Of a DNA stretch of 64,000 bases, positions 2,113-18,131 are shown in pieces (position 1 is the stretch's first letter; every line of letters starts with the position of its first letter). This DNA is from Candidatus Undinarchaeota archaeon (GTDB taxonomy: Archaea; SpSt-1190; JASMDC01). Both the position numbers and the translations under genes were made by a program. The notes under the pieces are model-generated. The model was not told the origin of the DNA and did no database searches. It saw nothing but the letters and a program-made list of their open reading frames with translations. The stretch spans positions 32,001-96,000 of the forward strand of contig CAZFHY010000001.1 in NCBI GenBank assembly GCA_964519305.1, written 5' to 3'.

Positions 2113-2133
2113 GGAGCGGACGTTCCTAATCAA

Positions 2134-2144
2134 CTTATATAAAT
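2134..2144. promoter_or_regulatory. Shared divergent TATA box
   Basis: cTTATATAAat about 25 nt from both divergent start codons (2112 and 2169), implying leaderless mRNAs. Confidence 0.55.
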
Positions 2145-2168
2145 CTTGTCGGGCGTTCGATTGTTCAC

Positions 2169-4982
2169 ATGGCACTTCATCGTCTGTTACGTACCATCTC
2201 AGCCATTGTCCTCGTCGCCCTGCTCCTGACACCGGGCAGCGCTATAGTCGCGGACGAGGTCGTTGAGGAGGTGGACATATCCACATTGAAGTACGCTCAG
2301 GTGGACATCACTTATGTTCTCCCGAGCCGCTACCTCGATACACTCGATGACCAGCTGCTCAACAGCAGATGCTCCCTGCTATCCTCGGTGACCGGGTGCC
2401 GTGCTTCGATCTACGGTGGCGAGGAGAAGGTAGTGTTCAACATGCTCGAGCCCAGCCCCGAGATAGGGGTCAGGGACCTCGACGTCCAAGAGGACCTCAT
2501 CAACGTCGAGTTCTACTTCAAGTACCTGCCCAAGCAATACGTGCTCGCCCAAGGACTGATGGTGCGTGAGCGAGGTATGAAGATCAGGTACCCCACCCAC
2601 ACGACCGTGCTCAACTACGTCCTGGACATGCCCCTCCTCTCGCAGTTCGCCATTTCCAGGCGGGCCGTCCCGTTCTCGGCCACGGTGGACAAGACGTCCT
2701 TCGTCATCGGTGAGACCATCCCTATCCCAAAGATCACAGAGGGCATATTCTGCATCGCCGCCCTCCTGGACGGCGACACGGTCATCGTCCGTGATTACTC
2801 GAGCACCTGTTCACCCTTCGAGCTCGGGACCACTTCGTTCATCCCCGAGGGCAGCTACGACCTATACCTCATCGCGCTCACCGGGAGCGCGACCAAGTAC
2901 AACAGTATCCGGGTGGACCTGGAAGCGTCCGATATCCCGACCTATCTGGATCTGGACAAGGACAGGTGCAACCTGGGCGAATCCTTCGTTGTGAAGGTCA
3001 CATCCTCCGAGGACCTCGACCGGTGCGAGGTGCACTTCATGGACCCCTTCGGCAACCAGGTGGAGGAGCGCACTTCGTACGATTGTGAGAACATAATCCT
3101 CGGAACGTCTCCCGCCCTGGTCCCTGGACGCTATCTCGTCAAGGCATATTCCTGGAAGGGAGAGGAGCGCGGGGCAGCTTCTATGAGCATCACCCTCGTG
3201 GGACAGGGCTACTCCTCCTCCGAGATCACCACAGACAGCAATGTGTACAACGCGGGCGACACTATCGAGGTGTACTCCGAATCCGAGGGCGACTACTGTC
3301 TGACCGAACTCTTCGACTCAGAGTACAACAAGGTCGCCGAGGCCGAATCTGTCGGATGCGAAGCCGTCGACATCCCGGCCCATGACAGTCTTGAGGCGGG
3401 CAACTACCTGATCAAGACCACCGTGAAGAAGAACGGACGCATCATCTCCGTGGCCCCCAAGGGGATCGAGATCAGACCCTGGTCGGAGCATAGCGGCACG
3501 GTCCAGTCCGACCTCTGCCAGCAGGGCAAGCTCTTCATCCTGGGCGAGCGCTTCCCCTGCATATCCACCGGCGAGGTGTGCATCCCGTCATCCTCATCCA
3601 AGCCGTTATGCCTCTGTTTCGACCAGAGCGGTAATCCGAAGGACTTTTGCGATTACGGCCACACATGCGGCCAGACCGGCTGCTCCGAAACGAAGGTGTT
3701 CAAGACGCCTTTCATCATAATCCGCGACCAGGGTAATTGCCTGGCACGCAAGGGCGACCAGACCATCTCCTGCATCGAGCTGGGCGAGATCTGTGGCGGT
3801 AACTGCGTGTGCATCAACGAGAAGGACCAGCCTCTATCTTCCTGTGTGGGTGGCGACTCCTGCACGTTCGAGGGATGCAGTCGCTCCACCATCGAGTTCG
3901 AGGTGACGTCGGTCAGTCCGGAAAGCGTGCGCGCGGACGAGCTGCGTGCCGGAAGTGCCGTTTCGTGGAAAGGACATATGCATATGGACGACCAGCTCTT
4001 CTCAGGGAGCAGGTCCCAGCTAGAGTTCACCATGCGACTGGGAACGATCACGCTCGAGGACGCTGACATCGAGGAGGAGTACGTCTCCGCCGCAGAGGGC
4101 TGGAAGGTGACAGGCACCTTCTCGGGCGACCTTGATCCCGGTAACTACGAGACGTTCCTCATGGTGAAGCGTGGCGAGGACGTCCACATCATGCGCAAGG
4201 CATTCCAGGTATGGTACCCCTTGTCCGAGAGCGCGCTGAACATCGAGCTCCGGTACGTCAATCCCGAGAAGATGTCCTATCGGGAGCTGGGTCTGGAAGG
4301 TGGAGGGATCGAACTGCACGCTCGTGTGACCAACCATGCGGGCCGTGCGCTCACCGGTAAGGACCTGCCACCCGATGTGTTCAATATGAGCCTTGAGGGT
4401 GCTGCTACGTCGCTCGGTGCGTTCTCCATGTCCGAACCGAAGTTCGACAAGAAGCTCGGTCTGTGGGTCATCAAGGGTACGTTCTACACGAAAGTGAGGA
4501 TCACCATCAGCAGGCTCGAACTTTCCATCATGCACCTGGGCAGGACAGGCGAGGCCACATCGCCCTTCGAACTGCTCGAGCACGTGCCACTCGAGATAAC
4601 CATCAGGACAACCGAACCTGGGAGCAACAAACCCATCTTCCACCTCATGGCCATCACCGGGTTCGACATCGATGTGTACGTGGACATCGAAGGCTCGTCC
4701 TCGCTGCAGAGCAAGGACTTCAATATCAAGATCGGGCACGTCGAGATCAAATCCGACTGTGGTACGGCGGACGGGGACCCCTGCATCGGTTACATAGTGG
4801 ACACCGAAAGGGGCGTGCGCATCCACCTCTCCAACATCAAGCTCTGTGAACTGGAGGACGTGTCATCCGACAGCGTCCGCAATCTCAGCATCGAGATCGA
4901 GGAGATGGGGCAGAAGGCCAGGGCCAAGACCCAATTGCGCATCGTCAGCAATCCCGGCAAGTACCAAGTGAGGTGTTCCTGA
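2169..4982 (+). CDS. Large secreted protein with Ig-like repeats and a central Cys-rich region
   Basis: Sec signal peptide; repeated ~90-aa beta modules (e.g. DKTSFVIGETI, DKDRCNLGESF, DSNVYNAGDTI); two CxxxGExC...CxC...C...C...GC repeats. Confidence 0.75.
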   Translation: MALHRLLRTISAIVLVALLLTPGSAIVADEVVEEVDISTLKYAQVDITYVLPSRYLDTLDDQLLNSRCSLLSSVTGCRASIYGGEEKVVFNMLEPSPEIGVRDLDVQEDLINVEFYFKYLPKQYVLAQGLMVRERGMKIRYPTHTTVLNYVLDMPLLSQFAISRRAVPFSATVDKTSFVIGETIPIPKITEGIFCIAALLDGDTVIVRDYSSTCSPFELGTTSFIPEGSYDLYLIALTGSATKYNSIRVDLEASDIPTYLDLDKDRCNLGESFVVKVTSSEDLDRCEVHFMDPFGNQVEERTSYDCENIILGTSPALVPGRYLVKAYSWKGEERGAASMSITLVGQGYSSSEITTDSNVYNAGDTIEVYSESEGDYCLTELFDSEYNKVAEAESVGCEAVDIPAHDSLEAGNYLIKTTVKKNGRIISVAPKGIEIRPWSEHSGTVQSDLCQQGKLFILGERFPCISTGEVCIPSSSSKPLCLCFDQSGNPKDFCDYGHTCGQTGCSETKVFKTPFIIIRDQGNCLARKGDQTISCIELGEICGGNCVCINEKDQPLSSCVGGDSCTFEGCSRSTIEFEVTSVSPESVRADELRAGSAVSWKGHMHMDDQLFSGSRSQLEFTMRLGTITLEDADIEEEYVSAAEGWKVTGTFSGDLDPGNYETFLMVKRGEDVHIMRKAFQVWYPLSESALNIELRYVNPEKMSYRELGLEGGGIELHARVTNHAGRALTGKDLPPDVFNMSLEGAATSLGAFSMSEPKFDKKLGLWVIKGTFYTKVRITISRLELSIMHLGRTGEATSPFELLEHVPLEITIRTTEPGSNKPIFHLMAITGFDIDVYVDIEGSSSLQSKDFNIKIGHVEIKSDCGTADGDPCIGYIVDTERGVRIHLSNIKLCELEDVSSDSVRNLSIEIEEMGQKARAKTQLRIVSNPGKYQVRCS

Positions 4983-6850
4983 TGGTCGAGCGCACACGAG
5001 GTCAGATGGCTCTCATCGGGCTCGCGGCGGTAGCACTGGTAGTCATCATGATCGTTTACATGATGAGCGGTAGCCGCAGGACCGAGACCGAGATCAATAT
5101 CAAGGACATCGAGTCCGCCGGCCTCAAGAGCGAGCTGGAGAAGGTGGAGAGCATCGTTACCGATATCTTCGAGGAGTCGATCCACTCCTCTGCGCTCGAG
5201 CTGGCACGTCATGGTGGGTATGCCCGCGGCAATGTACCGCCCCGCAATCTCGGGCTCACGCCGTACTGGTTCTACAAGGGGAACATCATCAACATCCCCT
5301 CGGTAGAGGTCATGACGGGCATGATGAAGGAGCGTATGGAATGGCGCATCCAGAACGATCTCAATGACCTGCGCAAGAACCTGCGGATGGACATGTTCCA
5401 CATCGGCCAGCCACGGGTCACCGTCACTCTCACCGATGTCCAGATCAACGCTGACCTGGAGCTACCTATCGAGGTAGTGCAGGGCGAGAACAAGGTCAAG
5501 ACCAAGATCGAGTTCACTCACACGGCACAACTACGTCTCAAGCTGTTACGCGACCTGGCCGAGAAGTACGTGCGTAATTACGCTGAAGTGCGTTACATGG
5601 AGCAGCAGTGGATGCACGGCGTCAACAACGATCCGCGGGTACCTAACACCCACGGTGCCGAGCCGGACGCGACGGGTCCCTGTACGACCTGCCAGGTCGT
5701 CAAGTACACGAAGCCGGGTATGACCTCAGCACTGCAGGAGCACGCTCAGCTCCACTCGTCAATGGAGCTCCAGCGTGCACGCAACCTACCTTTCTTCCAG
5801 AAGGACGCCAGTGGCGATCAGGTCAAGGACATCCAGCTCGACTTCAAGGCCAATGAGAAGGACCTCGAGTTCGAGTTCACCGCGAATCCGGGCGAGGCCT
5901 GCGAGAGCAACACCGAGGTATACCTCATCGAGCAGGGCAACACGGGCAGTGCGCCCATGGGCTCGTGCCAACATATGACCGTGACCTCCTATGACCTGTT
6001 CATGTTCCCGGTGGAGATCATCATCAGGGACCTGCTCAAGATCGGCATGGTCATGACCACAGAGACGGCCGAGACGACGACGGACCAGGACGGCAGCGCG
6101 ACAAAGAGCGTCGTCAAGCCCCTTGAGTTCCATATCGCCCTGAACTCCTACTTCACGACCGGTGATCCCAAGGCAGTGGACGGCTCTGTCAACGATCCTG
6201 AGACCGTCGATAACCTTTGTCAGGGAGCCTGCTCTATCGACATAAAGGCTACAAATGTCAACGAGGGCATGCTGTTCATCGACTCGTGCGAGTACGGGCC
6301 CGGCAACCACTTCACTGAGGCCAACGTACCCTGCGGTATCCACACCATCACGTTCAAGTCCATCGATCCCGCGGGCAAGGCCAAGTGGGTGAAGAGGGAC
6401 CCCATCACGGACAACTACCAGCTCGAGATCGAGGTCCAGGACTATGCATCGGTGAAGGGCACCATCAACATGAAGAACAAGGTGTACTGCACCCAGTCCA
6501 AGCGCGTGGAGGACAAGGGCCTCGAGACACTGGCGTACTACGAGGGCGATCCGCCTCGGACGATCAGGCTGTTCTTCTACCCCGTCAACCACAGGCTGGG
6601 AGAGATGGTGCATGCCGACATCGACGAGAACGGTGCCTACGAGGTCCCCGTTATCAATCCCGGGACATATCTGGTGCTTGCCTTCCCCACCGAGGACGCC
6701 TCACACCGCCCTACGCACAAGGTGCTGCCAAAGGGCCTGGTGATGGACATCGAGCCAGGTACTAACGACCTGAACATCGAGCTGGAGCCCATGCGCGTGG
6801 AGAAGGTCGGCGACAAGTACGTCAACGTGGTCGGAACCGAGGACTGTTAG
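4982..6850 (+). CDS. Large pilin-like protein with class III (prepilin) signal peptide and C-terminal CnaB/carboxypeptidase-regulatory-like domain
   Basis: MVERTRG|QMALIGLAAVALVVIMIVYMM fits the archaeal [KR]G|Q + hydrophobic prepilin motif; DENGAYEVPVINPGTYLVLA; TGATG overlap with upstream gene. Confidence 0.65.
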   Translation: MVERTRGQMALIGLAAVALVVIMIVYMMSGSRRTETEINIKDIESAGLKSELEKVESIVTDIFEESIHSSALELARHGGYARGNVPPRNLGLTPYWFYKGNIINIPSVEVMTGMMKERMEWRIQNDLNDLRKNLRMDMFHIGQPRVTVTLTDVQINADLELPIEVVQGENKVKTKIEFTHTAQLRLKLLRDLAEKYVRNYAEVRYMEQQWMHGVNNDPRVPNTHGAEPDATGPCTTCQVVKYTKPGMTSALQEHAQLHSSMELQRARNLPFFQKDASGDQVKDIQLDFKANEKDLEFEFTANPGEACESNTEVYLIEQGNTGSAPMGSCQHMTVTSYDLFMFPVEIIIRDLLKIGMVMTTETAETTTDQDGSATKSVVKPLEFHIALNSYFTTGDPKAVDGSVNDPETVDNLCQGACSIDIKATNVNEGMLFIDSCEYGPGNHFTEANVPCGIHTITFKSIDPAGKAKWVKRDPITDNYQLEIEVQDYASVKGTINMKNKVYCTQSKRVEDKGLETLAYYEGDPPRTIRLFFYPVNHRLGEMVHADIDENGAYEVPVINPGTYLVLAFPTEDASHRPTHKVLPKGLVMDIEPGTNDLNIELEPMRVEKVGDKYVNVVGTEDC

Positions 6851-6858
6851 TACCCGAG

Positions 6859-6880
6859 GAGCGTCCGGCTACGGGCGCTC
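6859..6880 (+). terminator. GC hairpin after the pilin-like gene
   Basis: gagcgtccg-gcta-cgggcgctc, 9-bp stem with one G-U. Confidence 0.4.
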
Positions 6881-7059
6881 GTCTTGACAACGCGGGCAGT
6901 ACTCGTAGCTTGGTCCTGCTCCCGAGGATGCTTTCGATGAGCATATCGTTTACTTATGTAAACAACGGTGACAGGATGGACGGTACCATCCGCAAGGTGG
7001 ATGAGCTACCTTTGACCTCGGAAGGTATCACGGTAGTGGACGGGAGCAGCTAGTTCTAC

Positions 7060-8319
7060 TCACTGGCTCTGGCTCCACTGCTGGAACTGCTCCGCCCACT
7101 CGCCCTGGTTCGTAGGCTCTTCAGGCGGCGGCTCGTACGATGGCTGTTCTTCCCTCGGTTCGTTCGACCCAGTCATCATCTTCACGCGCTTGATCAGTTC
7201 CTTGATGCGCGGCATCTCCACACCGGCCAGCAGGATGACCACCTCGAACCGGTCGTAGCTGGAGATGACGGCGTTCCCCCAGCGCACGGTACCGCCGGCG
7301 CCATCATTGAGCTGGCTCCCGAGCCAGCTGATTGCCTCGTGGAGCTCGGAGACCTTGGGCGAAGTGGGTCCGGCGACGATGAGCGCCGCTGAGCGGGCAC
7401 TGGTGTACACCGCCTGGGTCGTCGTCCCCTGGAGCACTGCCATCTGGACCAGATTGGTGAGGCTCGAGCGGGCGTTCCCCTCGGCGTCCACGGGCGCTTC
7501 TGCCCGTCCCAAGCAGCACAGCACGCCGTAGTCGCTGGTCTTTGCCTCGAGGATCGTGTTCTTCAGGTCAGTGGAGTCCATGACCAGGTCCTGCTCCTGC
7601 GAGATGGGCAGGCCCGAGATGGTCAGCAGCTTGATCTGCTTGAGGATCTCCCGGTTGATCTGGTCGAAGATCTCGTTGATACCCACCCGCCCACGGACAT
7701 GGGCAGGGATGCGCTCGTAGAACCACTCGTTGTCGGCGATGATGAGCCCGTCCAGGCGGGGCAGGAGGTTCTTCATTCCCCATAGTGCGTTCTCCTCGTA
7801 CCGGCCGCTCTCGTACCCGAAGGGCAGCAGCCCGATGCCGATCTTGACGAAGTCGTTCGGGTTAACGACGTGGCGCTGGATGAACACCTCGTCGATTATG
7901 TCCGCCGCCACCGGTGAGCACCCGCAGCCGGAACCGCCGCCAAGGGAGGTGACGATAAAGCAGAAGTGGGGCATGATGCCGCGGCCAAGGGTGTTGACTG
8001 TGATGGTGTTTCGGATGAGGTCGCGGTTCTGGTTGGCCACACCCTTGCAGTACTCGGGATTGCCGCCGCACCCCTTTCCTCCGCCGATCAGGATGCGCGA
8101 CTCCTCGGGGATGTTGAGGATGTTGAGGTCGCGGATGTTGGTGTTCAGGGCCACCGAGGCGAAGTAATCGTCCACACGCAGAGTGGAGATGCCCATGGAA
8201 CGGGCGAAGGTCAGCATCTGGCTGACCACCGAGCGCTGGAACTCGGCCACGGCGTCGAGCACGCGGGTGCCCCCCTGACCCAGCCCCATTGCGAATATCT
8301 GGCTTCCTGAGACGTCCAT
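7060..8319 (-). CDS. Tubulin/FtsZ superfamily GTPase (divergent CetZ/FtsZ-like)
   Basis: GLGQGG, LNTNIRDL, GKGCGGNP, SLGGGSGCG (tubulin signature variant), LLPFGYES, ADNE, FDQIN, VMDSTDLKNTI; acidic Pro/Gln tail; start at 8319 or 8328. Confidence 0.9.
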   Translation of the reverse strand: MDVSGSQIFAMGLGQGGTRVLDAVAEFQRSVVSQMLTFARSMGISTLRVDDYFASVALNTNIRDLNILNIPEESRILIGGGKGCGGNPEYCKGVANQNRDLIRNTITVNTLGRGIMPHFCFIVTSLGGGSGCGCSPVAADIIDEVFIQRHVVNPNDFVKIGIGLLPFGYESGRYEENALWGMKNLLPRLDGLIIADNEWFYERIPAHVRGRVGINEIFDQINREILKQIKLLTISGLPISQEQDLVMDSTDLKNTILEAKTSDYGVLCCLGRAEAPVDAEGNARSSLTNLVQMAVLQGTTTQAVYTSARSAALIVAGPTSPKVSELHEAISWLGSQLNDGAGGTVRWGNAVISSYDRFEVVILLAGVEMPRIKELIKRVKMMTGSNEPREEQPSYEPPPEEPTNQGEWAEQFQQWSQSQ

Positions 8320-8337
8320 GATGCACACTTCCCTTGC

Positions 8338-9309
8338 TCAGCCGAACAGGTCCTCCTCGAGCGTCTTCTTCTTAGGCGCGGCCCGCTCGCCGAAGCGTAC
8401 GTCCTCGAGCTCGCCCATGAGGTCGGCCTCGAGACTGACGGCCTTACGCGCTTCTTGTTCGGCCCCTGCACGGACCTCCATGAAATAATTATATATCTTC
8501 TGATAACGCGGCCGGAAAGTCAGGGAGAACAGTTCATAGTCCGGTGTGGGCGCGATGAAGGGGCGCACGCCTGGGATTATGCCAGGTGGTTCCTCGGGCA
8601 TGCACACGTAGGAGAACGAGTTATCGGTGAGGGAGAAGTCGGAGGCGCACACGTTCTGGAGGATGGCCGTGTTCAGGTCCATGCCCTGGAGGCTCTCTGC
8701 GAACGACGGTACGCACAGTTCGCCGGTGAGGCCGTCCGAGGCCAGGTACTGGCGCATGCCGTACTTGCTGTTGAGGCCCCTGAGGATGTCGAGCATGTAC
8801 TGGACGAACGTGTCCATGCGCTCGAACGCCGTGTGCTGGTCGAGCGCCTTTACCTTGCTCGTCAGTCGCTCCTCCTCGAGCACGATGACCAGGTCGGCGG
8901 TCTCTTTCATGTCCACCATCGTGGAGATTAGGTGGCGCTTGGCCTGCATGGGGTACTCCTTCATGTAGGGGAGCAGGAGGACGGCGCAGAGGAAAGCGTC
9001 GGGCTGGTACTGGCGGACGCGCTCGAAAGCGTGTGCGGCCAGCGCCCCGTACTCGGTGGTGGGATTGAGCAATGCCACGCTCATGCCATCGGTCATGTCC
9101 AGGGAGTGGTCCACCCAATCCCGGACAAGCCCCATCTTGAATTCGCGCTTGCTGGTGTCGTCGGAGATCTCGATCTTGAGGCATTTATTCCGATCGAACT
9201 CCTTGAGGTCGCTGATGCTCGCCGACGCCAGTGCGAAGGGTGCGCGGTGGCGCTCAGTGTACCGCTCGATCCATGTGGCGCCGAAGGTCCCGAGCCCGAT
9301 GAGGTTCAT
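8338..9309 (-). CDS. Degenerate tubulin/FtsZ-like protein, probably GTPase-dead
   Basis: Start at 9309 (ATGA overlap); MNLIGLGTFG, AVLLLPYMKEY, ADLVIVLEEERL, AFERMD fall in FtsZ/CetZ order and spacing, but the GGGTG loop is absent. Confidence 0.6.
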   Translation of the reverse strand: MNLIGLGTFGATWIERYTERHRAPFALASASISDLKEFDRNKCLKIEISDDTSKREFKMGLVRDWVDHSLDMTDGMSVALLNPTTEYGALAAHAFERVRQYQPDAFLCAVLLLPYMKEYPMQAKRHLISTMVDMKETADLVIVLEEERLTSKVKALDQHTAFERMDTFVQYMLDILRGLNSKYGMRQYLASDGLTGELCVPSFAESLQGMDLNTAILQNVCASDFSLTDNSFSYVCMPEEPPGIIPGVRPFIAPTPDYELFSLTFRPRYQKIYNYFMEVRAGAEQEARKAVSLEADLMGELEDVRFGERAAPKKKTLEEDLFG

Positions 9310-11105
9310 AAGCCAACCCACTCCCGCATGATACGCTTCCAGATGAACTTGCGTGCATGCTCGATCAATTTGAACCTGACGGTCACGTACATGATGCCCC
9401 CGGTCACCGCGAACAGGATGAGCAGGAACAGGACCCGCTGGCGGAACCGGTTCACCTCTACCGCGCAGGTGCCGTCCTCCTGTCTGACGTTGTCGTTCAT
9501 GAGCCCCTGGAACGTACCGAGCTCCTCGCACGCCTGGGGCATGCACACGTCGTTCTCGCAGTAGAAGCCCTTGATGCACCCGCAGTCGCTGCAGCAGTAC
9601 GGCTTCTCGATATCGAGGCAGAGGGTGTCACCGCACTTGATGTCGTACGCTCGGCGAGGTGCGTCGGTGAGGGTGCCCGTGAACCTCAGCCCTTCTTTGA
9701 AGCTCATACCGTCGGGGAGAGACATGGTCACCCATTCGTCCCCCTGGGGGAGTCGGATGCGCCACTCGCCGGCGTTCTTCGTCCTGTCCATGAGGCCCGG
9801 GACGGTGAAGGTGACGTTCTGCTCCTTGACCAGCATCCCCGCGATGGGCGTGACGTCGATATCGTTGCCGTGGACCGTTCCGTTGAGAGGGGATAGGAGG
9901 GCGGGGCCCGTGGCGTTCTCCATCCGCCATTCTACCAGCGACAGCACGCCGTCGGGATTGGCGGAGAGCACGTCGGCCTCGCCGTAGGCCTTCATGTCCT
10001 CGATCTCGCGCAGACGGAGCACGGCATGGCCTGAGCCGTCGGATAACAGGCTGAGAGTGATGTTACGCCTTCTGCTCGGCGGGAAGAGCACCTCCAACCG
10101 GTGCTGGCCTCCACGGTACGCACTCCCGTCCACCTCTACGTGCATTACCGCTTCATTGTGCATGATGTACTTCAGCCCGGGGGTAGCAGGAGCGCGTGTC
10201 CGGTACGCTACCGCCTTGCGCTCGCCAGCACCGAGGCTGAGGTTGACGGATAGGACGTTACCTACACCCTGGATATACACCGGCGCCAGCGCACCACCAA
10301 GGTACTCCAGGCGCGGGTTCGTCGGCTCGTCCAGCCGGATCTTCACGGATTGACGCCCCTGGTTCACCAGTGTGAAGTTTACCTGGAAACCCTCGCCCTG
10401 GACGGCCTTTGCTGGCATCGACCGGCCCATGGACAGCTTCGGGCGTTCCAATGCCCAGGTGATGAGCGTACGAGCGATGGGGAGCTTCTCGCGGAGCACG
10501 CACAGCCTCCTCGAGCAGTTCAGGCCGGGGACAACGTGAATGCCAGGCGCCTCGACATCGAACTTGAAGATGAACCATGTGAAATCGTCGAACCGTGAGC
10601 CGTTGATCCGCAGGGCATAGGGGAAGACCTCCTTGTGGACGTCCTCCAGCGGTGCGGCGGCCGTGTACACCAGGTCGTGCCGGGCGTAGGGGCCGAAGGG
10701 CAGTTCCCGGGTGTGCAGCGCTACAAGCTCCTCCCTCATTCCTGCAGCCTCGCGTGTCAGGTCTGCGCCCATGACCGAGACGTTCATGGCCCCCAGGTCC
10801 TCGCTCAGGTGGTTAGCCAACCGGATAATGGCCTTGCGCACGACCGTGTCATTGGGGCCAAGGACCACCGTGTAGAGCACCTCGTCCACGGTCACCGTGG
10901 TGAGGTCCATCGACCATATGTCAGCGTCGTCCGCAGCAGGCTCCTCGTGGATTTCGACGGGGGCGTCCGTGACATTGGACGGGACATCGGTGGCGTTGAC
11001 CGGGAGGTCGGTGGCGTTGACAGCAGCGGTCCCGTTGTCATCCTGTGCTACTGCCAGGGACATGAGGAGGAGGGCCATCACCAGGATAATCGTAGTTCGC
11101 GCCAT
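9306..11105 (-). CDS. Cell-surface glycoprotein with C-terminal membrane anchor
   Basis: Signal peptide MARTTIILVMALLLMSLAVA, many NxT/S sequons, DUF11/CARDB-like Ig module, Cys cluster CGDTLC..CCSDCGC..CENDVC, C-terminal TM helix and basic tail. Confidence 0.75.
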   Translation of the reverse strand: MARTTIILVMALLLMSLAVAQDDNGTAAVNATDLPVNATDVPSNVTDAPVEIHEEPAADDADIWSMDLTTVTVDEVLYTVVLGPNDTVVRKAIIRLANHLSEDLGAMNVSVMGADLTREAAGMREELVALHTRELPFGPYARHDLVYTAAAPLEDVHKEVFPYALRINGSRFDDFTWFIFKFDVEAPGIHVVPGLNCSRRLCVLREKLPIARTLITWALERPKLSMGRSMPAKAVQGEGFQVNFTLVNQGRQSVKIRLDEPTNPRLEYLGGALAPVYIQGVGNVLSVNLSLGAGERKAVAYRTRAPATPGLKYIMHNEAVMHVEVDGSAYRGGQHRLEVLFPPSRRRNITLSLLSDGSGHAVLRLREIEDMKAYGEADVLSANPDGVLSLVEWRMENATGPALLSPLNGTVHGNDIDVTPIAGMLVKEQNVTFTVPGLMDRTKNAGEWRIRLPQGDEWVTMSLPDGMSFKEGLRFTGTLTDAPRRAYDIKCGDTLCLDIEKPYCCSDCGCIKGFYCENDVCMPQACEELGTFQGLMNDNVRQEDGTCAVEVNRFRQRVLFLLILFAVTGGIMYVTVRFKLIEHARKFIWKRIMREWVGL

Positions 11106-11107
11106 GA

Positions 11108-12673
11108 TCACCACCCCAGGTACCAGTAGGCCTCCTCGAACTTTTTGACGTACTCCTCGGGCGTGTGCCGCCTCAGGTTCTCCGACTCGACCACGAACTT
11201 GAAGCGGACGATACCGCCTCCTCCACCGATCCGCCATCGGACGAAGAACAGGAACGATACGAAGGCGAAAGCGAACGATACCGCCACGAAGGTGCACTCG
11301 AACCCGTAGATCTCGCACACTAGGCCCGCAGGATGGAGGGTGACCGGGAATGTCTCGTTCCCCGCCTCGAAGCCACGGTAGTAGATACGACCGATGAGGT
11401 TGCAGGCGAGCGGTTCACGGGTCGCGGGCGTGCTCACGTTGCACCGGTCTATACCGTACTCGCCAGCTCCGCAGTGTCGGTCGAGCAACGTCTCGTTCCC
11501 TCCGCAGCGAAGGAAGAGCTCATAAGGAAGACCGGGGTCAGTGAGGCTGGCGAACACGATGGTACTTGCGTTCCCCTCGATGTCCTTTGCTACTGGCCGG
11601 AACTGCTCGAAAGCGGGTGAGAACTCCCTCACCTCGATCTCCAGCCCCTCCTCCTGCTCGTCGCCGTCCGTGGAGAAGGTCACCGATCCCTCGTAGATGA
11701 TCCGGCCCTCGTACTCGTGGAGTGGCAGGCGTCCCAGGTGGAGCGGGCAAGTGATCTCGTCGAGGATGTTGGTGCAGGCCTGGTCCACCGGAAGGGTCTG
11801 ATTGACGTACGCGGTGTTGTTCCAGGTGAGGATGATCGAGATCGTGTTGTCGCGCTGGAGTATATCGTTCCACTTCTCAATGGATGTGTTTACGACCACG
11901 GGATCGTACTGGTTCACGAGCCGGGTGTAGTTGGTAAGAGTGAACAAGGGGTCCTCGGCGTACACGACCGCGAAGGGCGTCTCCATGTAATCGACGATGC
12001 GCGATCCAGTTACGATCTCAAGGCGCGCCGTGTACCTCCCTCGCTCGTCGGGCACGTCCACGCTCACCGCATGTCGGATGCTGCCCTGCATATCGCAGCT
12101 GAGGTCGATCGGTTGATGGCTGCGCGCAACGACCTCCCGGCCCGGCCCGAGCACGTACAGGGTCGTGTTGTAGCTCACACCGTACTCCGGGCGTCGGATG
12201 ACGTAGTCGATATAGAGCTGCTCTCCGGGGCCGAACACGTCCTTGCTCAAGCCAGCCTCGAGCGCGGTGTTGACGAAGAACACGGTATGGATGTTGAACG
12301 GGATGGACTCTGACACGGGGGACGTGACATCGTAGGTGAAGTAGATCGTGTGGTCACCAGGGGTGCTGCATAGCGGGGCCTTCGTCAGGATGGTGAACGC
12401 ACGCTCGACGTCCTTGCGCACCTCGAGCTTGGGCAGACCGCCCGGGTAATCGGTACCCCAGTGGTACTGGGAGTTCGTATCGTTCTTCCGGTTGGCGATG
12501 CCGTACGCGGGCTCATCGATAAGACCGCGTACCGTGACCTTGTGGACGCCCTGGTCGCCAGGGAGGAGCACGTGGCGTACGTTCTGTACGTCGACGAGGA
12601 CCTGCTCGCCCGCAGAGACGCTCGCAGCGCACAGAGCGCATACGAGAACGAGAACAAGAAGCTTGGACGGCAA
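11108..12673 (-). CDS. Secreted, C-terminally anchored Ig-repeat protein
   Basis: Signal peptide, beta-rich domains, TM helix FVAVSFAFAFVSFLFFV, short cytoplasmic tail. Confidence 0.7.
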   Translation of the reverse strand: MPSKLLVLVLVCALCAASVSAGEQVLVDVQNVRHVLLPGDQGVHKVTVRGLIDEPAYGIANRKNDTNSQYHWGTDYPGGLPKLEVRKDVERAFTILTKAPLCSTPGDHTIYFTYDVTSPVSESIPFNIHTVFFVNTALEAGLSKDVFGPGEQLYIDYVIRRPEYGVSYNTTLYVLGPGREVVARSHQPIDLSCDMQGSIRHAVSVDVPDERGRYTARLEIVTGSRIVDYMETPFAVVYAEDPLFTLTNYTRLVNQYDPVVVNTSIEKWNDILQRDNTISIILTWNNTAYVNQTLPVDQACTNILDEITCPLHLGRLPLHEYEGRIIYEGSVTFSTDGDEQEEGLEIEVREFSPAFEQFRPVAKDIEGNASTIVFASLTDPGLPYELFLRCGGNETLLDRHCGAGEYGIDRCNVSTPATREPLACNLIGRIYYRGFEAGNETFPVTLHPAGLVCEIYGFECTFVAVSFAFAFVSFLFFVRWRIGGGGGIVRFKFVVESENLRRHTPEEYVKKFEEAYWYLGW

Positions 12674-12730
12674 CCTATCACAACACCACAGCGGGTATCT
12701 TTATATCTCTTGCACGAAAGGAAGCCCCTG

Positions 12731-14677
12731 ATGGCCTCCCTGAAGCTCGACAGGAACAGGTGCACGAAGTGCGGAAAGTGCGTGGTCGCATGTCCGAACA
12801 ATGCCATCGTCATGCGTAACTTCCCTGCGTTCTGCAAGCACTGCGACCTCAAGGCCGCACCGTGCTACCAGGCCTGCCCGCTGGGCGCCATCGTGGACGT
12901 AGGTAACGGTATTCTCAAGGTGGACGTGAACCGCTGCGATCCCTACCAGTGCAAGAAGGAGTGCCAGAAGTGGTGTCAGTGGGATGGCGTGTTCGTGTTC
13001 GGCGACAAGGCCAAGAAGTGCGATCTGTGCTTCGACTACCAGAACCAGCCCAACTTCATCCCCAAGTGCATCGAGGTGTGCGACGCCAAGGCCATCACCA
13101 CCGACCTCATGCAGGAGGTCGTGCTCGACTACGCAGGATGGAGCGCCGAGTCCATTCCCCAGGAGATCATCGCAGAGGTCCTCCAGAGCTTCACCTACGG
13201 CCAGGTCGTCAAGGTGCAGGGCCAGCCGGTCCCGTACTACTACGTCAACTCGCTACCCCAGCTCACCGACTGGGCCCAGACCAAGCTCCTGGGTCTCACC
13301 ATCAAGAAGTACATCGACACCGGCAAGGCGGACCAGGACCCGTTCTCCTCGCTGATGATGATCATGCGCAAGTCCGCCCAGTGGGTGGGCACCAGCGTGG
13401 ACGAGAACATGCTAAAGGAGCTCGCCAACATCGCTCTCATGAACACGAAGGGCTACGGGCCCTTCGACGTCCTCCTCGAGGACGACCAGCTGGAGGAGTT
13501 GATGTGCATCGGCCTCGGTAAGGAGAGGCCAATGTATGTCTACCACCGCGAGTACGGGATGCTGCGGACCAACCTGTTCTTCCCCGACGAATACATGGAC
13601 TTCACGGTGGACCCACCGGAGAAGAAGTCCGGCGAGGAGGTCCTGTGGAAGATCATCGAGAAGATGATCGAGCCCATGGGGGAGCGTATCGACCGCCAGC
13701 ACCCCAGGGTCAACGCGCAGCTGCCGGACGGCTCCCGTCTCCACGCGTGCATCAAACCAATGGGATTCTCCGGACCGTCGGTGACGATCCGAAAGTTCCG
13801 GGCCGCACCGTTCTCGCCCATCGACACCATCAGGTTCAACACCATCTCTCTGGAGGCCGTGGTGTACTGCTGGATCGCAATGGAGAGCGAGATCTCGATG
13901 ATCGTGGCCGGAAACACAGGTTCCGGAAAGACCACCTCGCTCAACGCATTCTCTACGTTCATCCCTCCCGAGGAGCGCATCCTCATCCTCGAGTCAACGC
14001 CCGAAATCAATCTGCCCCACCCGCACAAGGCACGTCTGGTCACCGTCAACAACGCTGACCCGCCCATCGGTATGCAGGACATCATCGAGGACACGCTGCG
14101 TATGCGGCCCGACCGTGTGGTAGTAGGAGAGGTCCGGAGCGGCCCAGAGGCACAGGCGTTCATGAACTCGGTACTGGCAGGTCAGGCACGCGGTTCCATG
14201 TGCACGTTCCACGCACAGGACGCAGTATCTGTCGTCAAGCGTATGAAGAACCCTCCCATGAACATCTCACCTCTCGACCTGCAGGTCCTGGACCTCGTCT
14301 TCGTCCAGCGACGTATGTCGCGGGTCGAGGGCAGCAAGCGGAAGCAGATCCGTCGCGTCGTCGAGATCGCCGAGATCGACAAGCATAATATGAGCGACGA
14401 GGGCGTACCGGTCATCCATCCGATCTATCGCTACAATCCGGACACCGATGTCGTCGAGCGCGTGCACTCGGGTCTGTCCCCGCTAGAGGAGCGCATATCC
14501 AAGTACAACCTCTGTCTCGACGAGGGGCAGTTCTGGGGCGAGGTACAGGCGAGGACCAAGATGCTCAAGTACCTGATGGCCAACAACATCCGTGACATCA
14601 AGGTCTTCATGGACTACATCATCCAGTACGGTACGGATCCTGCTTTCAAGCAGAGCATAATCAACATGAACATCTGA
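12731..14677 (+). CDS. Type IV pilus/type II secretion assembly ATPase (TadA/VirB11/ArlI family) with N-terminal 4x[4Fe-4S] domain
   Basis: Walker A GNTGSGKTT, LILESTPEI, LRMRPDRVVVGEVR, TFHA; N-terminal 16 Cys in four ferredoxin motifs; ATG 12731 follows TATA near 12700. Confidence 0.9.
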   Translation: MASLKLDRNRCTKCGKCVVACPNNAIVMRNFPAFCKHCDLKAAPCYQACPLGAIVDVGNGILKVDVNRCDPYQCKKECQKWCQWDGVFVFGDKAKKCDLCFDYQNQPNFIPKCIEVCDAKAITTDLMQEVVLDYAGWSAESIPQEIIAEVLQSFTYGQVVKVQGQPVPYYYVNSLPQLTDWAQTKLLGLTIKKYIDTGKADQDPFSSLMMIMRKSAQWVGTSVDENMLKELANIALMNTKGYGPFDVLLEDDQLEELMCIGLGKERPMYVYHREYGMLRTNLFFPDEYMDFTVDPPEKKSGEEVLWKIIEKMIEPMGERIDRQHPRVNAQLPDGSRLHACIKPMGFSGPSVTIRKFRAAPFSPIDTIRFNTISLEAVVYCWIAMESEISMIVAGNTGSGKTTSLNAFSTFIPPEERILILESTPEINLPHPHKARLVTVNNADPPIGMQDIIEDTLRMRPDRVVVGEVRSGPEAQAFMNSVLAGQARGSMCTFHAQDAVSVVKRMKNPPMNISPLDLQVLDLVFVQRRMSRVEGSKRKQIRRVVEIAEIDKHNMSDEGVPVIHPIYRYNPDTDVVERVHSGLSPLEERISKYNLCLDEGQFWGEVQARTKMLKYLMANNIRDIKVFMDYIIQYGTDPAFKQSIINMNI

Positions 14678-14689
14678 GGGCCCAATCGC

Positions 14690-15967
14690 ATGACGGACGA
14701 CATGTTCTCGGTGAAGGCAGGCCAAGACAAGTCTTGGAACCAGGGGGCACAGGACTGGGCCCAGTCTCCCGGGCAGGCCAACCAAGGCTGGGGAGCACCG
14801 GCACCGCCGGCCATGCAACAGGCACCGAGCCACCCGCCCGGACCCATATCACCGCCGGCCATGCAACATGGACCCGGACCCATGCAACACGGACCTGGGC
14901 CAATGCAGCACGGACCCGGCCCTTCACCCATGGGAGGCGCTACGGCCCCCGTCGGTGGCGGCGACTGGTACTCGACGTCCGTTGGTGAACAGACACAGCA
15001 GACCACTGATGTCGAGGAAAAAGAGGCAGAGCAGCGCTCACGGTTCAAGTTCATGGGCCCAATGCTCCTGCGCATGGGCCCCGAGCGGATCAAGTGGTAC
15101 CGCCAGGCCTGTGATGCCGTGGAGTTCTTCATGTTCGCCGACGACTGGGTGCTTGTCTCCTCGCTGATAGGTATCGCTGTATTCGCCCTGGCGTTCCCGA
15201 TACTCACATCGCTATCTGACGCATTCATCATGATCGTCCTCGTCCCCGTGACCGGAGGCGGTGTGTTCGCCATCCTGATCTCATATCCTATCTTCAAGTT
15301 CGAGAGCCGCAAGGACGAGATCGAGACCAACCTCCCGGACGCCCTGTTCCAGGCGGCGAGCAATCCGCCCCGGACCCACTTCGTGGAGCTGCTGACGGGC
15401 CTGACGAAGATCGGGTACGGACCGCTGACCGACGAGCTGCGGGTCACGGTGAAGGAGATCGAGAAGGGCTCGTCCGTCAAGGAGGGTCTGGAGAAGCTCT
15501 CCGAGCGCAACCAGTCGAAGATCCTGGAGAGGGCCTGCTACCTCCTAATCCGGGCGCAGGAGCAGGGTGTAGATATCGTCGAGGCCCTGGCCGCCCTGGC
15601 CACGGACATCAAGGAGACCAAATACCTCCTGCGTGAACAGGCCGCGTCGCTCCAGCTCCAGAAGATCACACTTCTGGCAGCGGGGGCCGTCCTCATCCCC
15701 CTCATCCTCGGGTTCGTCGTAGGGCTGGCGGAGTCCATGGGCAATTTCAGCGAGGACAAGGCAGAGATCATCGCTGCACAGGTCCAGACGGTGCAACCAA
15801 TCTTCCTCGGGTACGTGGTCATCCACGCCCTCGAGGCGTGTCTGGCCATCGGCCGTCAGGAGGGCGATGCCAAGAAGGCCGTTTACTATGTGATCCCAGT
15901 GCTCCTGATCGCGATTATTCTGTTCCAGTACGTGGCCCCTCAGGCCATGATGATGTTCATGGGGTGA
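14690..15967 (+). CDS. TadB/TadC-like pilus platform protein (T2SSF domain) with Pro/Gln/Gly-rich N-terminal extension
   Basis: IETNLPDALFQAAS...GYGPLTDEL....EIEKG plus multiple TM helices; directly downstream of the ATPase. Confidence 0.85.
   Translation: MTDDMFSVKAGQDKSWNQGAQDWAQSPGQANQGWGAPAPPAMQQAPSHPPGPISPPAMQHGPGPMQHGPGPMQHGPGPSPMGGATAPVGGGDWYSTSVGEQTQQTTDVEEKEAEQRSRFKFMGPMLLRMGPERIKWYRQACDAVEFFMFADDWVLVSSLIGIAVFALAFPILTSLSDAFIMIVLVPVTGGGVFAILISYPIFKFESRKDEIETNLPDALFQAASNPPRTHFVELLTGLTKIGYGPLTDELRVTVKEIEKGSSVKEGLEKLSERNQSKILERACYLLIRAQEQGVDIVEALAALATDIKETKYLLREQAASLQLQKITLLAAGAVLIPLILGFVVGLAESMGNFSEDKAEIIAAQVQTVQPIFLGYVVIHALEACLAIGRQEGDAKKAVYYVIPVLLIAIILFQYVAPQAMMMFMG
14861..14923 (+). 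repeat. 3 x 21-bp coding repeat (MQHGPGP)3
   Basis: atgcaacatggacccggaccc / atgcaacacggacctgggcca / atgcagcacggacccggccct differ only at synonymous sites. Confidence 0.85.
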
Positions 15968-15994
15968 TATGAGATAGCAACTTTCGGCGACGAG

Positions 15995-16897
15995 ATGGAG
16001 GTGTACGAGCAGGAGAGCAGGTTCCGCCAGTTCCTGTTCACCTTCAATCAAGCGTTCGCCATCTCGAACCGCCTCCGGGAGAAGGACCGGAACGAGCTGT
16101 CGGTCGTCCTGCGCAAGGCGCGCATGGACTATGATCCTGAAGAGTACGTCACTCTCACCTACGTTGCATGGATCGCTTCGTTCTTCGGCGTACTCCTCGT
16201 CGGCGGTATCTTCGTCATCGCGCTCGGTGACGTCGTAGGCTACACCAACATGATCGTGGGCGACGCCATTCTCGCGTTCTTCGTGAGCACCATCGTCTAC
16301 TCCTACTCCAAGAGCTATCCGTACGGGGAGATCAAGGACATCGGCCTCCGGATCGAGGCGGAGCTGCCTTTCATGGTCCGGAACCTCGCCATCGAGCGCG
16401 AGATGGGCATCCCCATCAAGGACTCCTTCGAGAAGCTGGCCGAGGAGGAGGGGCTCCTGGGACGCGAATCGCGGGTCATCCTTGCCGAGATCGAGCGCGG
16501 CTACTCGGTGACACAGGCACTTCGCGCTTCCTGTCAGCGTACGGAGAGCCGGTTGTACGTGCGCACCATGGCACAGCTCACCCACGCCCTGGAGATAGGT
16601 ACCGAGATCAAGTCTGTGCTCAACGCCATGGCAAAGGAGGCCGAGACCAACCTTCGTATCGCGCTCAAGGAGTACTCGGGCAAGGTATCCACGCTCTCCA
16701 TCATGTACGTCATCGTGGCGGCCGTGGTCCCCGCCATCCTGGGCGCAGCGCTCATCCTCTCGGTGCTCTTCGAGGAGGGCTCCACCCAGCTCCTCTCCGC
16801 GGACATGCTCATGCTCCTCTACTGGGGCCTCTTCCCCCTGGCCAACTACACCATCCTGGCCGTCATGAAGCGGGGACAGCCGTACATAATGGTCTGA
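15995..16897 (+). CDS. Second TadC-like pilus platform protein (T2SSF domain)
   Basis: IEAELPFMVRNLAIEREMGIP...EIERGYSVTQAL, multiple TM helices. Confidence 0.85.
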   Translation: MEVYEQESRFRQFLFTFNQAFAISNRLREKDRNELSVVLRKARMDYDPEEYVTLTYVAWIASFFGVLLVGGIFVIALGDVVGYTNMIVGDAILAFFVSTIVYSYSKSYPYGEIKDIGLRIEAELPFMVRNLAIEREMGIPIKDSFEKLAEEEGLLGRESRVILAEIERGYSVTQALRASCQRTESRLYVRTMAQLTHALEIGTEIKSVLNAMAKEAETNLRIALKEYSGKVSTLSIMYVIVAAVVPAILGAALILSVLFEEGSTQLLSADMLMLLYWGLFPLANYTILAVMKRGQPYIMV

Positions 16898-16929
16898 GCC
16901 CCACTTGAGGGTGACCTGAGGTGATCTAC

Positions 16930-17469
16930 ATGGAGCAGGAGTTCCTCGACGGACGTGTGCTAGTTAAGGTGGGCGACCTCACCAGAGAGGACGTGGACGC
17001 TATCGTCAACGCAGCGAACTCCGGCCTGATGGGCGGAGGTGGCGTGGACGGGGCCATACACAGGGCCGGCGGCAGGGCCATCCTGAAGGAGTGCGAGCGC
17101 ATCAGGGGGACGGACTGGCCAGATGGTCTGCCCACCGGACGCGCGGTCATCACCACCGGCGGCGGTCTTGCGGCCAGGCACGTCATCCACACGGTCGGCC
17201 CGGTCTGGAGCAGCCGGCCCGGAAAGGACGAGCAGCTGGCCAGCTGCTACACCGAGTCGCTGCGGATAGCGGTGGACAACGGACTTCGGACGATCGCGTT
17301 CCCGGCCATCTCCACCGGTATCTACCACTTCCCCAAGGACCGGGCAGCGCGCGTGGCGTCAGCGGCCGTCAAGGCTTTCCTGGAAGGGGACAGTACAATC
17401 GAGCAGGTTCGGTTCGTGTTCTTCAGCGAGGGTGATGCGAGGACGTTCCTGGACAACTGCGGGTTCTGA
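16930..17469 (+). CDS. ymdB: Macrodomain O-acetyl-ADP-ribose deacetylase (YmdB/MacroD)
   Basis: GDLT..VDAIVNAANSGLMGGGGVDGAIHRAGG, VIHTVGP, AFPAISTGIYHFP. Confidence 0.9.
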   Translation: MEQEFLDGRVLVKVGDLTREDVDAIVNAANSGLMGGGGVDGAIHRAGGRAILKECERIRGTDWPDGLPTGRAVITTGGGLAARHVIHTVGPVWSSRPGKDEQLASCYTESLRIAVDNGLRTIAFPAISTGIYHFPKDRAARVASAAVKAFLEGDSTIEQVRFVFFSEGDARTFLDNCGF

Positions 17470-17502
17470 GCAGGTAACGAAAGACTTATAGTGCTGGAGG
17501 CC

Positions 17503-17632
17503 CACGGTCTCAGTATACCGATTCGGTCATCGGGGGCCAGCACCCCCGTGCCATCGTAACAGGTTCATCATCGTCCGGGGGCCCTCCACAGGGATGGTCC
17601 CCGGCGGTGATATTGATTTGTGACGACCGTGA
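17503..17632. ncRNA. Candidate structured non-coding RNA
   Basis: BRE/TATA gaaagacTTATAg at 17479-17491 with no ORF downstream; nested stems; box C (AUGAUGA) and box D (CUGA) on the minus strand. Confidence 0.35.
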
Positions 17633-17652
17633 GCAGTACTTGGAAAGGCCTT

Positions 17653-18078
17653 TTACTCGTTTCCTGATGCCTTTCCGACCGCTTCCCGTGCGAACCTGGC
17701 AGCGTCCTCGAGGTCGCTCTCGTTCGGCCGACCCCAATTCACGATGAACAGGAACCGTCCCCTGCACAGGAATCCGTCCAGATATTTACCGCCTGCTTTC
17801 TCCACGGCCTGCTTCACGTCGTCAAATGTGTACGGGCTGCCAGCGTTCGTGGCGAAAGGGGCGATAATCTTACCGGACAGTTCGCTCTTGTTGAGCAGCT
17901 CCTTAATGCTGTCATGGGCCGAACCAGCATACACGCCGGACCCGAGGAACACCAGGTCCCCGTCCAGTGAGCTCACGTCCTGTGCGAGCAAAGCCTTCGT
18001 TCCGACCTCACTTGCGATTCGCTCGGCGACCTTCTTCGTGTTGGACCCTCGCGAATAGTAGACGACCTGTACATCCAT
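17653..18078 (-). CDS. Flavodoxin family protein
   Basis: VVYYSRGSNTKKVAERIA, LVFLGSGVYAG, GRPNESDLEDAARFA. Confidence 0.85.
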   Translation of the reverse strand: MDVQVVYYSRGSNTKKVAERIASEVGTKALLAQDVSSLDGDLVFLGSGVYAGSAHDSIKELLNKSELSGKIIAPFATNAGSPYTFDDVKQAVEKAGGKYLDGFLCRGRFLFIVNWGRPNESDLEDAARFAREAVGKASGNE

Positions 18079-18131
18079 AGGTCACGTGAGGGGATGAAGT
18101 CATAAAAAGACCACTATGCTCGCCCGGCATC

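Follow-up and report, generated by a model that had tools for sequence, protein, structure and literature searches.

A candidate CetZ-associated type IV filament locus with an iron-sulfur-fused ATPase in an uncultured marine archaeon

An uncultured marine archaeon assigned to the Candidatus Undinarchaeota carries two divergent operons, one encoding two surface proteins together with a CetZ-like GTPase and a putative pseudo-tubulin, the other the ATPase and platform proteins of a candidate type IV filament (T4F). Both lie in a stretch of 64,000 nucleotides (nt) that we call the window (contig CAZFHY010000001.1 of assembly GCA_964519305.1, or G000:C1:32001-96000 in our numbering of genomes and contigs), and positions given without a contig label are those of the window. 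The assembly of this genome, G000, comprises 3.63 Mb in 42 contigs and is 99.8% complete; the guanine-plus-cytosine fraction is ~0.60. An earlier reading of the DNA, made without database searches (the sequence-only reading), had proposed nine genes forming a co-regulated machine in which a dedicated tubulin-like polymer positions or supports a pilus-like attachment apparatus. Open reading frames (ORFs), translations and Pfam matches place all nine genes where that reading had them (Table 1), with the correction that the frames of 738 and 670 amino acids (aa) in the ORF list are upstream extensions. The gene order of the minus-strand operon (521-, 599-, 323- and 419-aa genes), the two platform genes directly downstream of the ATPase gene, both of which match T2SSF, the 57 nt between the divergent operons, and the overlap between the start of the 625-aa gene and the stop of the 937-aa gene all stand as first described.

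Table 1 Features of the locus, with positions in the window
Feature	Position	Strand	Basis or remark
937-aa secreted Cys-rich protein	2169..4982	+	first gene of two-gene cassette
625-aa class III-signal adhesin-like pilin-family protein	4973..6850 (alternative ATG 4982)	+	
CetZ-like GTPase, 419 aa	7060..8319 (alternative GTG start 8328)	-	Pfam Tubulin and CetZ_C
Putative pseudo-tubulin, 323 aa	8338..9309	-	hhalign, language-model features
599-aa type I membrane glycoprotein-like surface protein	9306..11105	-	hydropathy, sequons
521-aa type I membrane surface protein, TTG start	11108..12673	-	hydropathy, sequons
Divergent intergenic region, 57 nt	12674..12730	.	sequence read directly
648-aa FlaI/TadA-type secretion ATPase with N-terminal iron-sulfur domain	12731..14677	+	T2SSE, Fer4
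TadB-like platform protein, 425 aa	14690..15967	+	Pfam T2SSF
TadC-like platform protein, 300 aa	15995..16897	+	Pfam T2SSF

The plus-strand operon has the make-up of a T4F core. The ATPase matches Pfam T2SSE (3.7e-32, 111.8 bits; cut-off 24.9) over a core at ~13637-14341, and its N-terminus carries an iron-sulfur (Fe-S) domain at ~12761-13081 (PF00037 Fer4, 31.1 bits; cut-off 21.1) with 16 Cys arranged in four groups of four, of the CxxCxxCxxxCP type, within residues 11-117. Among NCBIfam models the ATPase matches FlaI at 2e-68, which is below the equivalog cut-off, and, weakly, the four-cluster subunits DmsB, NrfC and TtrB; weak matches to the bindosome proteins BasE/BasF also occur among the locus proteins. 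The fusion of a ferredoxin-type domain to a TadA-like ATPase is therefore as the sequence-only reading had it, and its term 'polyferredoxin' is better replaced by a DmsB/NrfC-like four-motif domain. The epithet 'redox-linked' is taken from the presence of this domain, for which cluster binding and a redox response are predicted. The TadB-like protein (T2SSF, PF00482, 2e-9, 37.9 bits; cut-off 25.2) has hydrophobic segments and an N-terminal region of ~130 aa rich in Pro, Gly and Gln, and the TadC-like protein (T2SSF, 3.4e-13, 50.1 bits; cut-off 25.2) weakly matches NCBIfam ArlJ, UpsF and BasF. T4F systems are recognised by a VirB11/FlaI-type ATPase and a polytopic T2SSF/TadC/ArlJ platform, and 'system 1' by two platform genes beside the ATPase (PMC13705601; Sivabalasarma and Albers 2026; here and below, papers are cited from their main-text sections); the present locus has all of these. 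Epd-type short pilins, system-specific arCOGs and an ATPase of clade 1 are further marks of 'system 1'. Genome-wide there are seven T2SSE matches and four PF01478 matches to Peptidase_A24, the class III signal peptidase, the latter all outside the window.

Fe-S-fused ATPases of this kind are found in other archaea as well. The first 240 residues, compared with 201 genomes (G000 included), gave 11 foreign matches, in ORFs of 547-607 aa and all in genomes of 0.6-1.1 Mb, and the six foreign loci examined all encode Fer4 + T2SSE fusions. A word-based protein search with the first 230 residues returned only the protein's own cluster, a result that, given the method, is no evidence of rarity. A tree of the ATPase core, built with the Fe-S domain left out, yields a single group of eight Fer4-fused ATPases with a support of 98 in the Shimodaira-Hasegawa-like approximate likelihood ratio test (SH-aLRT), in which the present ATPase falls with seven others. 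We found no description of such a clade in the literature, and the terms 'ferredoxin' and '4Fe-4S' are absent from the main text of PMC13705601. Four of the six small-genome loci (L053/G102, L055/G192, L056/G154 and L057/G050), from different families, share the operon order DUF192 - Fer4-fused T2SSE ATPase - T2SSF - T2SSF - PAC2. When the ORFs of the six foreign ATPase loci and of two tubulin loci were searched with a profile of the 625-aa family, the 937-aa protein, both anchored surface proteins and the 323-aa protein, no hidden Markov model (HMM) or phmmer match was obtained.

On the minus strand, the 419-aa protein is a clear if divergent member of the tubulin superfamily, with matches to Pfam Tubulin (PF00091, 1.6e-16, 61.6 bits; cut-off 33) and CetZ_C (PF21011, 8.6e-12, 45.3 bits; cut-off 21.6). 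Its nucleotide boxes GLGQGG and GGGSGCG and the T7 aspartate D248 are intact and fall on invariant or near-invariant alignment columns, so we regard it as a motif-intact GTPase with predicted activity. A word-based search of 5.8 billion proteins returned the protein itself and two weak relatives (26% and 30% identity); since the same search missed even the paralog in its own genome, so few matches are no evidence of rarity. In a quick tree of 19 rows, none of them a named reference CetZ or FtsZ sequence, it is the sister of a paralog on contig C15 of its own genome (SH-aLRT 95), with long branches and support of at most 79 for deeper placement. A third divergent tubulin-like gene of this genome (L058:7502-8785, G000:C8:71502-72785), which matches Pfam Tubulin at profile positions 111-186 only, pairs on this tree with a gene of genome G017 (SH-aLRT 99); its divergent neighbour (L058:5563-7425) encodes a 620-aa protein with ubiquitin and UBX-like domains, and it is followed by genes for 650-, 327-, 957- and 332-aa proteins of no assigned function. 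G017, from another archaeal family, has two tandem same-strand tubulin-like genes on contig C75 (L014:1498-2721 and 484-1494), the second far more divergent, and this could be another instance of a tubulin pair.

The two proteins encoded upstream have the layout of type I membrane proteins. The 599-aa protein has hydrophobic segments at residues 1-24 and ~554-581, 14 NxS/T sequons and 12 Cys, and can be read as a signal, a large ectodomain whose Cys cluster lies close to the membrane, a single C-terminal transmembrane helix and a basic tail of ~20 aa. The 521-aa protein (hydrophobic segments 1-27 and ~451-482, 10 sequons, 12 Cys) likewise shows a signal, an ectodomain and a C-terminal transmembrane helix, followed by a predicted cytoplasmic tail of ~40 aa. 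Neither belongs to a Pfam or NCBIfam family; a relaxed Pfam search (E up to 5) of the 937-, 625-, 599-, 521- and 323-aa proteins returned sub-threshold fragments only, and the best ESM-Atlas match of the 599-aa protein, at 0.76, serves as a lead only. The genes of this operon are tightly packed, with a 2-nt gap, a 4-nt ATGA overlap between the 599- and 323-aa genes, and a gap of 9-18 nt before the CetZ-like gene, which may start at GTG 8328 or at ATG 8319. The 57 nt between the operons contain a single, central TATA-like element, TTTATATC, ~27-30 nt from both start codons, and are identical at 54 of 57 positions in the congener G001. We infer that both operons start from this shared element as near-leaderless transcripts.

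The 323-aa protein, called degenerate tubulin-like in the sequence-only reading, is linked to tubulins by profile comparison and language-model features, and not by Pfam, NCBIfam or sequence searches of the Protein Data Bank (PDB). A profile of four near-identical sequences aligns over residues 80-206 with a 15-sequence CetZ/FtsZ alignment (hhalign probability 84%, E 7.3e-6), and reaches 0.1% against an unrelated 21-sequence control alignment. The alignment registers NPTTEYG on the GGGTGxG box of CetZ/FtsZ, and the T4 box, the LPxxxE strand, the DxxIvxxNe strand and the following helix are also in register. The GGGTGxG signature itself is absent and the T7-aligned stretch has no acidic residues, so that, provided it is related to tubulin in the first place, the protein is a pseudo-tubulin. 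By ESM-Atlas language-model features its nearest clusters are Tubulin/FtsZ (0.92, 201/256 features), and its ten best family-bearing matches are all tubulin/FtsZ, a result obtained for a third of shuffled proteins as well. Among 1.84 billion representatives there are two true relatives, one with 94% identity and one a 63%-identical fragment. An AlphaFold2 model from four sequences is poor, with a predicted local distance difference test score (pLDDT) of 43, and within it residues 70-190 form alternating strands and helices ending in a long helix, which we take to be the pattern of the tubulin GTPase domain. In our judgement the protein is probably tubulin-like, with a predicted loss of GTPase activity. 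A predicted complex with residues 1-390 of the CetZ-like protein gave run scores of 0.00, 0.51 and 0.10 against a mark of 0.32, which favour neither binding nor its absence.

The two plus-strand genes that precede these operons have a different standing. The 937-aa protein has an N-terminal hydrophobic signal, 29 Cys and no Pfam or NCBIfam family, and the N-terminus of the 625-aa protein (...RTRGQ followed by a 28-residue hydrophobic stretch) resembles a class III signal. The sequence-only reading had counted this pair as part of the tubulin-pilus machine, and here it was wrong: the pair is one of 22 paralogous cassettes in the genome (E<=1e-5), nearly all of them adjacent and overlapping. Each cassette encodes a secreted protein of ~920-1090 aa with 25-29 Cys and a class III-signal adhesin-like protein of ~600 aa, without Pfam or NCBIfam family, and together they take up ~3% of the genome; examples are C9:17887-22487, C1:4754-9330, C4:43699-48263 and C15:29781-34426, with orthologous copies in G001. 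In that congener the 937-aa ortholog (85% identical) lies on contig C39 and does not abut the tubulin operon, whose neighbours there are nucleotidyltransferase and PIN modules; only 1.5 kb separate the 625-aa ortholog from the end of C39, which may or may not adjoin C75, the contig with the tubulin genes. We therefore reject the pair as a dedicated component of the locus. As for the family itself, R-[GA]-Q plus a hydrophobic helix can be read by eye in 19 of 22 rows of the 625-aa alignment (17 by a stricter script), a pattern that fits what we take to be the archaeal class III signal. An AlphaFold2 model of the 625-aa protein with 21 paralogs (pLDDT 85) shows a 72-residue helix (residues 8-79), an alpha/beta domain and tandem beta-sandwiches, and its best Foldseek matches are Gram-positive pilins and adhesins (6fwv at 2.7e-10, 4oq1, 3kpt, 3phs), with low template modelling (TM) scores of 0.13-0.18 because single domains only align. 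It is the only class III-like protein found by a strict home-made scan of positions 1-20000. If it forms filaments it would be a large, adhesin-like filament-former, with cleavage and polymerisation predicted. A further ORF of 2638 aa with 106 Cys (L019, G000:C1:22048-29964) contains a stretch of ~400 residues like the 625-aa family (27% identity, E 5.6e-32).

Evidence on whether tubulin and filament genes belong together comes from the congener and from a second gene set in the same genome. G001 is the sole close relative in the sample that carries the whole locus; it and the 3.6-Mb genome studied here are the only family members sampled, and all 15 genomes of the same class (G002-G016) measure 0.6-1.2 Mb, so that sizes within this one class differ strikingly. 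Protein identities with G001 are 96% for the CetZ-like protein, 93% for the pseudo-tubulin, 82% and 88% for the 599- and 521-aa proteins, 96% for the ATPase, 84% for TadB and 94% for TadC. The second set includes, on contig C15 of the own genome (L016), a Peptidase_A24 gene (6023-6667), a CetZ-like gene (6664-7812; Tubulin 4.9e-23, CetZ_C 2.6e-6) and a gene for a TadB-like protein of 425 aa (7813-9090; PF00482 E 4e-4), which overlap or abut one another, and G001 retains this module as well. By tblastn, the TadB-like protein of the locus is closest to C15:23230-24087 (32.5% identity, 5.5e-43; next best 2.4e-9), the CetZ-like protein to C15:21814-22788 (28%), the TadC-like protein to G000:C1:585564-586265 (29.6%), and the ATPase to C1:136462-138384 (46%). 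The last is also Fe-S-fused, and the two ATPases are sisters on the core tree (58% identity over 370 columns, SH-aLRT 100). As each of these four proteins has its closest paralog in the other set, the set was duplicated. In the dispersed copy the CetZ-like gene stayed joined to a prepilin peptidase gene and a TadB-like gene, which is hard to reconcile with chance adjacency. The tubulin operon of G001 is bordered by NTP_transf_2 genes with partners of 138-142 aa and a PIN-domain gene (G001:C75, L013:5339-6401 and 1-2937), inserted between the 599-aa gene and the pseudo-tubulin gene and downstream of the CetZ-like gene; these have a toxin-antitoxin-type look.

An association of CetZ with archaeal type IV pili (T4P) has been described before. 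Most Thermococci encode an FtsZ-family GTPase, arCOG02202, within their clade 1 T4P loci, and in Halobacteria it is found next to loci of subclade 4F (PMC4858521; Makarova et al. 2016), and cetZ2 lies beside pilB2/C2 in Haloferacales and Halobacteriales (PMC9856176; Brown and Duggin 2023). All analysed Thermococcales cetZ regions are pili-associated, and a co-option of CetZ by pilus systems has been suggested (PMC9856176); the co-localisation of 4F with CetZ2 is also noted in PMC13705601, and a positioning or regulating role for CetZ2 at 4F has been proposed in both papers. A close parallel is the Epd-like clade 1, or 'system 1', of Thermococci, in which an ATPase with two platform genes likewise has a CetZ-family tubulin in or beside the locus and adhesin-like and class III-signal proteins nearby. 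The present locus differs from it in the N-terminal Fe-S domain of the ATPase, in a highly divergent tubulin that is paired with a pseudo-tubulin and co-operonic with two C-terminally anchored glycoprotein-like proteins, and in that scans of the locus show neither a short Epd-type pilin nor a squalene cyclase. The haloarchaeal cetZ2 - pilB2/pilC2 (4F) arrangement also has a CetZ paralog adjoining a T4P ATPase/platform regulon with an adhesin-like protein (PMC9856176, PMC13705601), but its ATPase is of a different clade, and the main texts report neither an Fe-S fusion nor a pseudo-tubulin for it. The DPANN-type loci described above share the orthologous ATPase core directly followed by TadB- and TadC-like genes; the six of them lack tubulin, relatives of the anchored proteins and the 937/625 cassette, and four have the DUF192...PAC2 order instead. 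The Aap pilus of Sulfolobales, compared here by description only, is a T4F system that includes or depends on an Fe-S protein of unassigned role, AapX (arCOG07320; PMC13705601), which is a separate protein and not an ATPase domain; pilins and ATPase clade differ as well.

Taken together, we consider it somewhat probable that the locus is a lineage-specific variant of the CetZ-associated archaeal T4F locus, working along the following lines. A hexamer of the ATPase on the TadB/TadC platform would assemble or display class III-signal proteins after their cleavage by an A24 peptidase, the substrates being the 625-aa adhesin-like family, each member with its 937-aa secreted Cys-rich partner (the only clear candidates found in the genome). 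Beneath the membrane the CetZ-like GTPase would form a polymer, either modulated by the GTPase-dead pseudo-tubulin or joined by it in a heterodimer, and this polymer would position or stabilise the platform by way of TadB, of the tails that the two anchored proteins extend into the cytoplasm, or of both. The outcome would be a localised attachment apparatus, in which the Fe-S domain might tie ATPase activity to the redox or oxygen state. What is new here is the pseudo-tubulin partner, the anchored glycoproteins and the Fe-S ATPase; the CetZ-T4P association itself is already known. The sequence-only reading did not know this combination as a characterised system and held that its interpretation would be refuted if the arrangement were already catalogued as a standard archaeal T4P locus. 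Since CetZ/FtsZ-T4P adjacency has been catalogued in Thermococci and Halobacteria, that is in part the case, whereas the pseudo-tubulin partner, the co-operonic type I membrane proteins and the overlapping peptidase-CetZ-TadB frames were not found in the main-text sections of PMC4858521, PMC9856176 and PMC13705601, and the Fe-S ATPase was not found described.

Several observations weigh against a functional machine of this kind. None of the six foreign Fe-S ATPase loci (9.6-20 kb; Tubulin E <= 1e-4) contains a tubulin gene, and the closest CetZ-like genes of four other archaeal genomes (G017, G022, G023, G026) do not lie beside T2SSF genes; with the Fe-S ATPase core widespread without tubulin, the tubulin operon is best seen as a lineage-specific addition. 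Synteny is backed by a single congener which, at 82-96% protein identity, is too close to prove selection, and which has a 1.2-kb insert with a nucleotidyltransferase gene that splits the 599-aa gene from the pseudo-tubulin gene, so that translational coupling there is dispensable. The locus and the C15 module are paralogous and so go back to a single event in evolution, followed by retention; they do not amount to two independent origins. The 323-aa protein is modelled poorly and has no family match, the locus encodes no short Epd-type pilin in a strict scan of positions 1-20000 that could miss short pilins, and physical coupling between tubulin and pilus parts is itself predicted from gene arrangement. 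In favour, if weak, is the finding that a cassette lies within 15 kb of three of four Fer4-system loci and of none of three other T4P loci, which, at a random-locus probability of 0.197, gives a binomial P = 0.026 with a threshold set post hoc and hints at the cassettes being clients of the Fe-S-type system. Synteny, which the sequence-only reading had proposed as a check, thus gives a divided answer, with the two operons linked in the congener and tubulin missing from the six foreign ATPase loci, and the view of the locus as one machine is supported in part, by the second Peptidase_A24/CetZ-like/TadB-like module and by retention in the congener.

The absence of tubulin at the foreign loci, the CetZ-like genes of the four other genomes that are not beside T2SSF genes and the reliance on one close congener would all fit two independent neighbours, namely a cell-shape or envelope module of the tubulin pair and anchored proteins, as in Haloferax, next to an ordinary DPANN-type pilus core. 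A role of CetZ1 in rod shape and motility (PMC9856176, PMC11621097) would also be in keeping with this. We regard such a coincidence of neighbours as unlikely, if worth serious attention, as it leaves the CetZ-like paralog on C15, which sits between prepilin peptidase and TadB-like genes with overlapping or abutting ends, hard to explain without a functional tie, and as CetZ-T4P adjacency is published as recurrent in two other archaeal orders.

Another way to read the locus starts from its substrates. Clear class III proteins of this genome are all ~600 aa long and adhesin-like, and none is a short pilin, BasE/BasF appear beside FlaI/ArlJ among the weak NCBIfam matches, and class III binding proteins have been proposed to functionalise T4F machineries (PMC13705601). 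The T4F core might accordingly be a display or secretion device that processes the 625-aa proteins and anchors them, along with the 937-aa partners, in the form of a short pseudopilus or a bindosome-like surface array, with the 22 cassettes as alternative specificities and the tubulin as an accessory or unrelated. We hold this to be unlikely: strict home-made class III scans could miss short pilins, the 625-aa model has no substrate-binding-protein fold by Foldseek and its beta-sandwiches resemble adhesins and pilins, and any of the genome's seven T2SSE matches might serve the cassettes.

We think it improbable that the 323-aa gene is an orphan unrelated to tubulin and its profile match fortuitous, since the lack of any Pfam, NCBIfam or PDB match (a PDB search with its profile gave two chance-level matches, E 0.27 and 1.1) or BLAST similarity to the neighbouring CetZ-like protein, the low pLDDT and the small, near-identical profile are opposed by motifs in register at an E value that the control does not approach, by Atlas matches that are all tubulin/FtsZ (if also reached by a third of shuffled proteins), by the modelled alternation of strands and helices, and by translational coupling inside a tubulin operon.

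A far-reaching extension of the CetZ-associated T4F interpretation, which we rate as improbable, would be that the CetZ-like protein and the pseudo-tubulin form a two-component heteropolymer bolted to an Fe-S-gated T4F motor via TadB and the glycoprotein tails, giving a positioned, redox-switched organelle that displays 22 adhesin cassettes and that evolved in a 3.6-Mb genome. Eukaryotic alpha/beta and bacterial BtubA/B are heterodimeric tubulins, and the resemblance to them, a lead only, lies in a pair of neighbouring tubulin-superfamily genes that are transcribed together, one of them having lost catalytic features; the present partner differs in having also lost the nucleotide-binding G-box, and a heterodimer is hypothetical. 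If true, archaea would offer an example both of the evolution of tubulin heterodimers and of a transmembrane linkage from cytoskeleton to surface.

The remainder of the window adds some context. Upstream, at 1249-2232, a minus-strand gene that diverges from the 937-aa gene encodes a protein of 327 aa in which two hydrophobic segments are combined with a MarR/DUF7343 winged helix at the C-terminus. The protein may be a regulator tethered to the membrane; as it has one paralog only in the genome, it is not a regular companion of the 937/625 cassettes. A probable giant surface protein of 2196 aa, encoded at 36765-43355, matches Laminin_G_3 in three stretches and also has FG-GAP and Stig1-like Cys-rich repeats, pentaxin and an FGE-sulfatase-like domain. 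At 17-400 the window contains the C-terminal lobe (FTR_C, 3.6e-37) of a gene of the formylmethanofuran-tetrahydromethanopterin formyltransferase type, and two multi-cluster ferredoxin-domain genes adjoin a DUF362 gene (20434-21609 and 23425-25103); these suggest an anaerobic, Fe-S-rich metabolism.

What CetZ proteins do beyond cell shape is an open question, and three papers have noted cetZ genes beside T4P loci and speculated on co-option (PMC4858521, PMC9856176, PMC13705601). The tightest genetic linkage of tubulin and pilus genes seen in this analysis is that of the present lineage, where the C15 module has a CetZ-like gene in apparent translational coupling with the prepilin peptidase gene before it and the platform gene after it, and where the locus described here joins a tubulin and a putative pseudo-tubulin in one operon with transmembrane surface proteins. 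This linkage names candidate contacts, namely the N-terminal region of TadB and the tails of the anchored proteins in the cytoplasm. The clade of Fe-S secretion ATPases and the 22-fold cassette family, for their part, bear on the means by which such archaea, in anoxic water, attach to particles or to partners.

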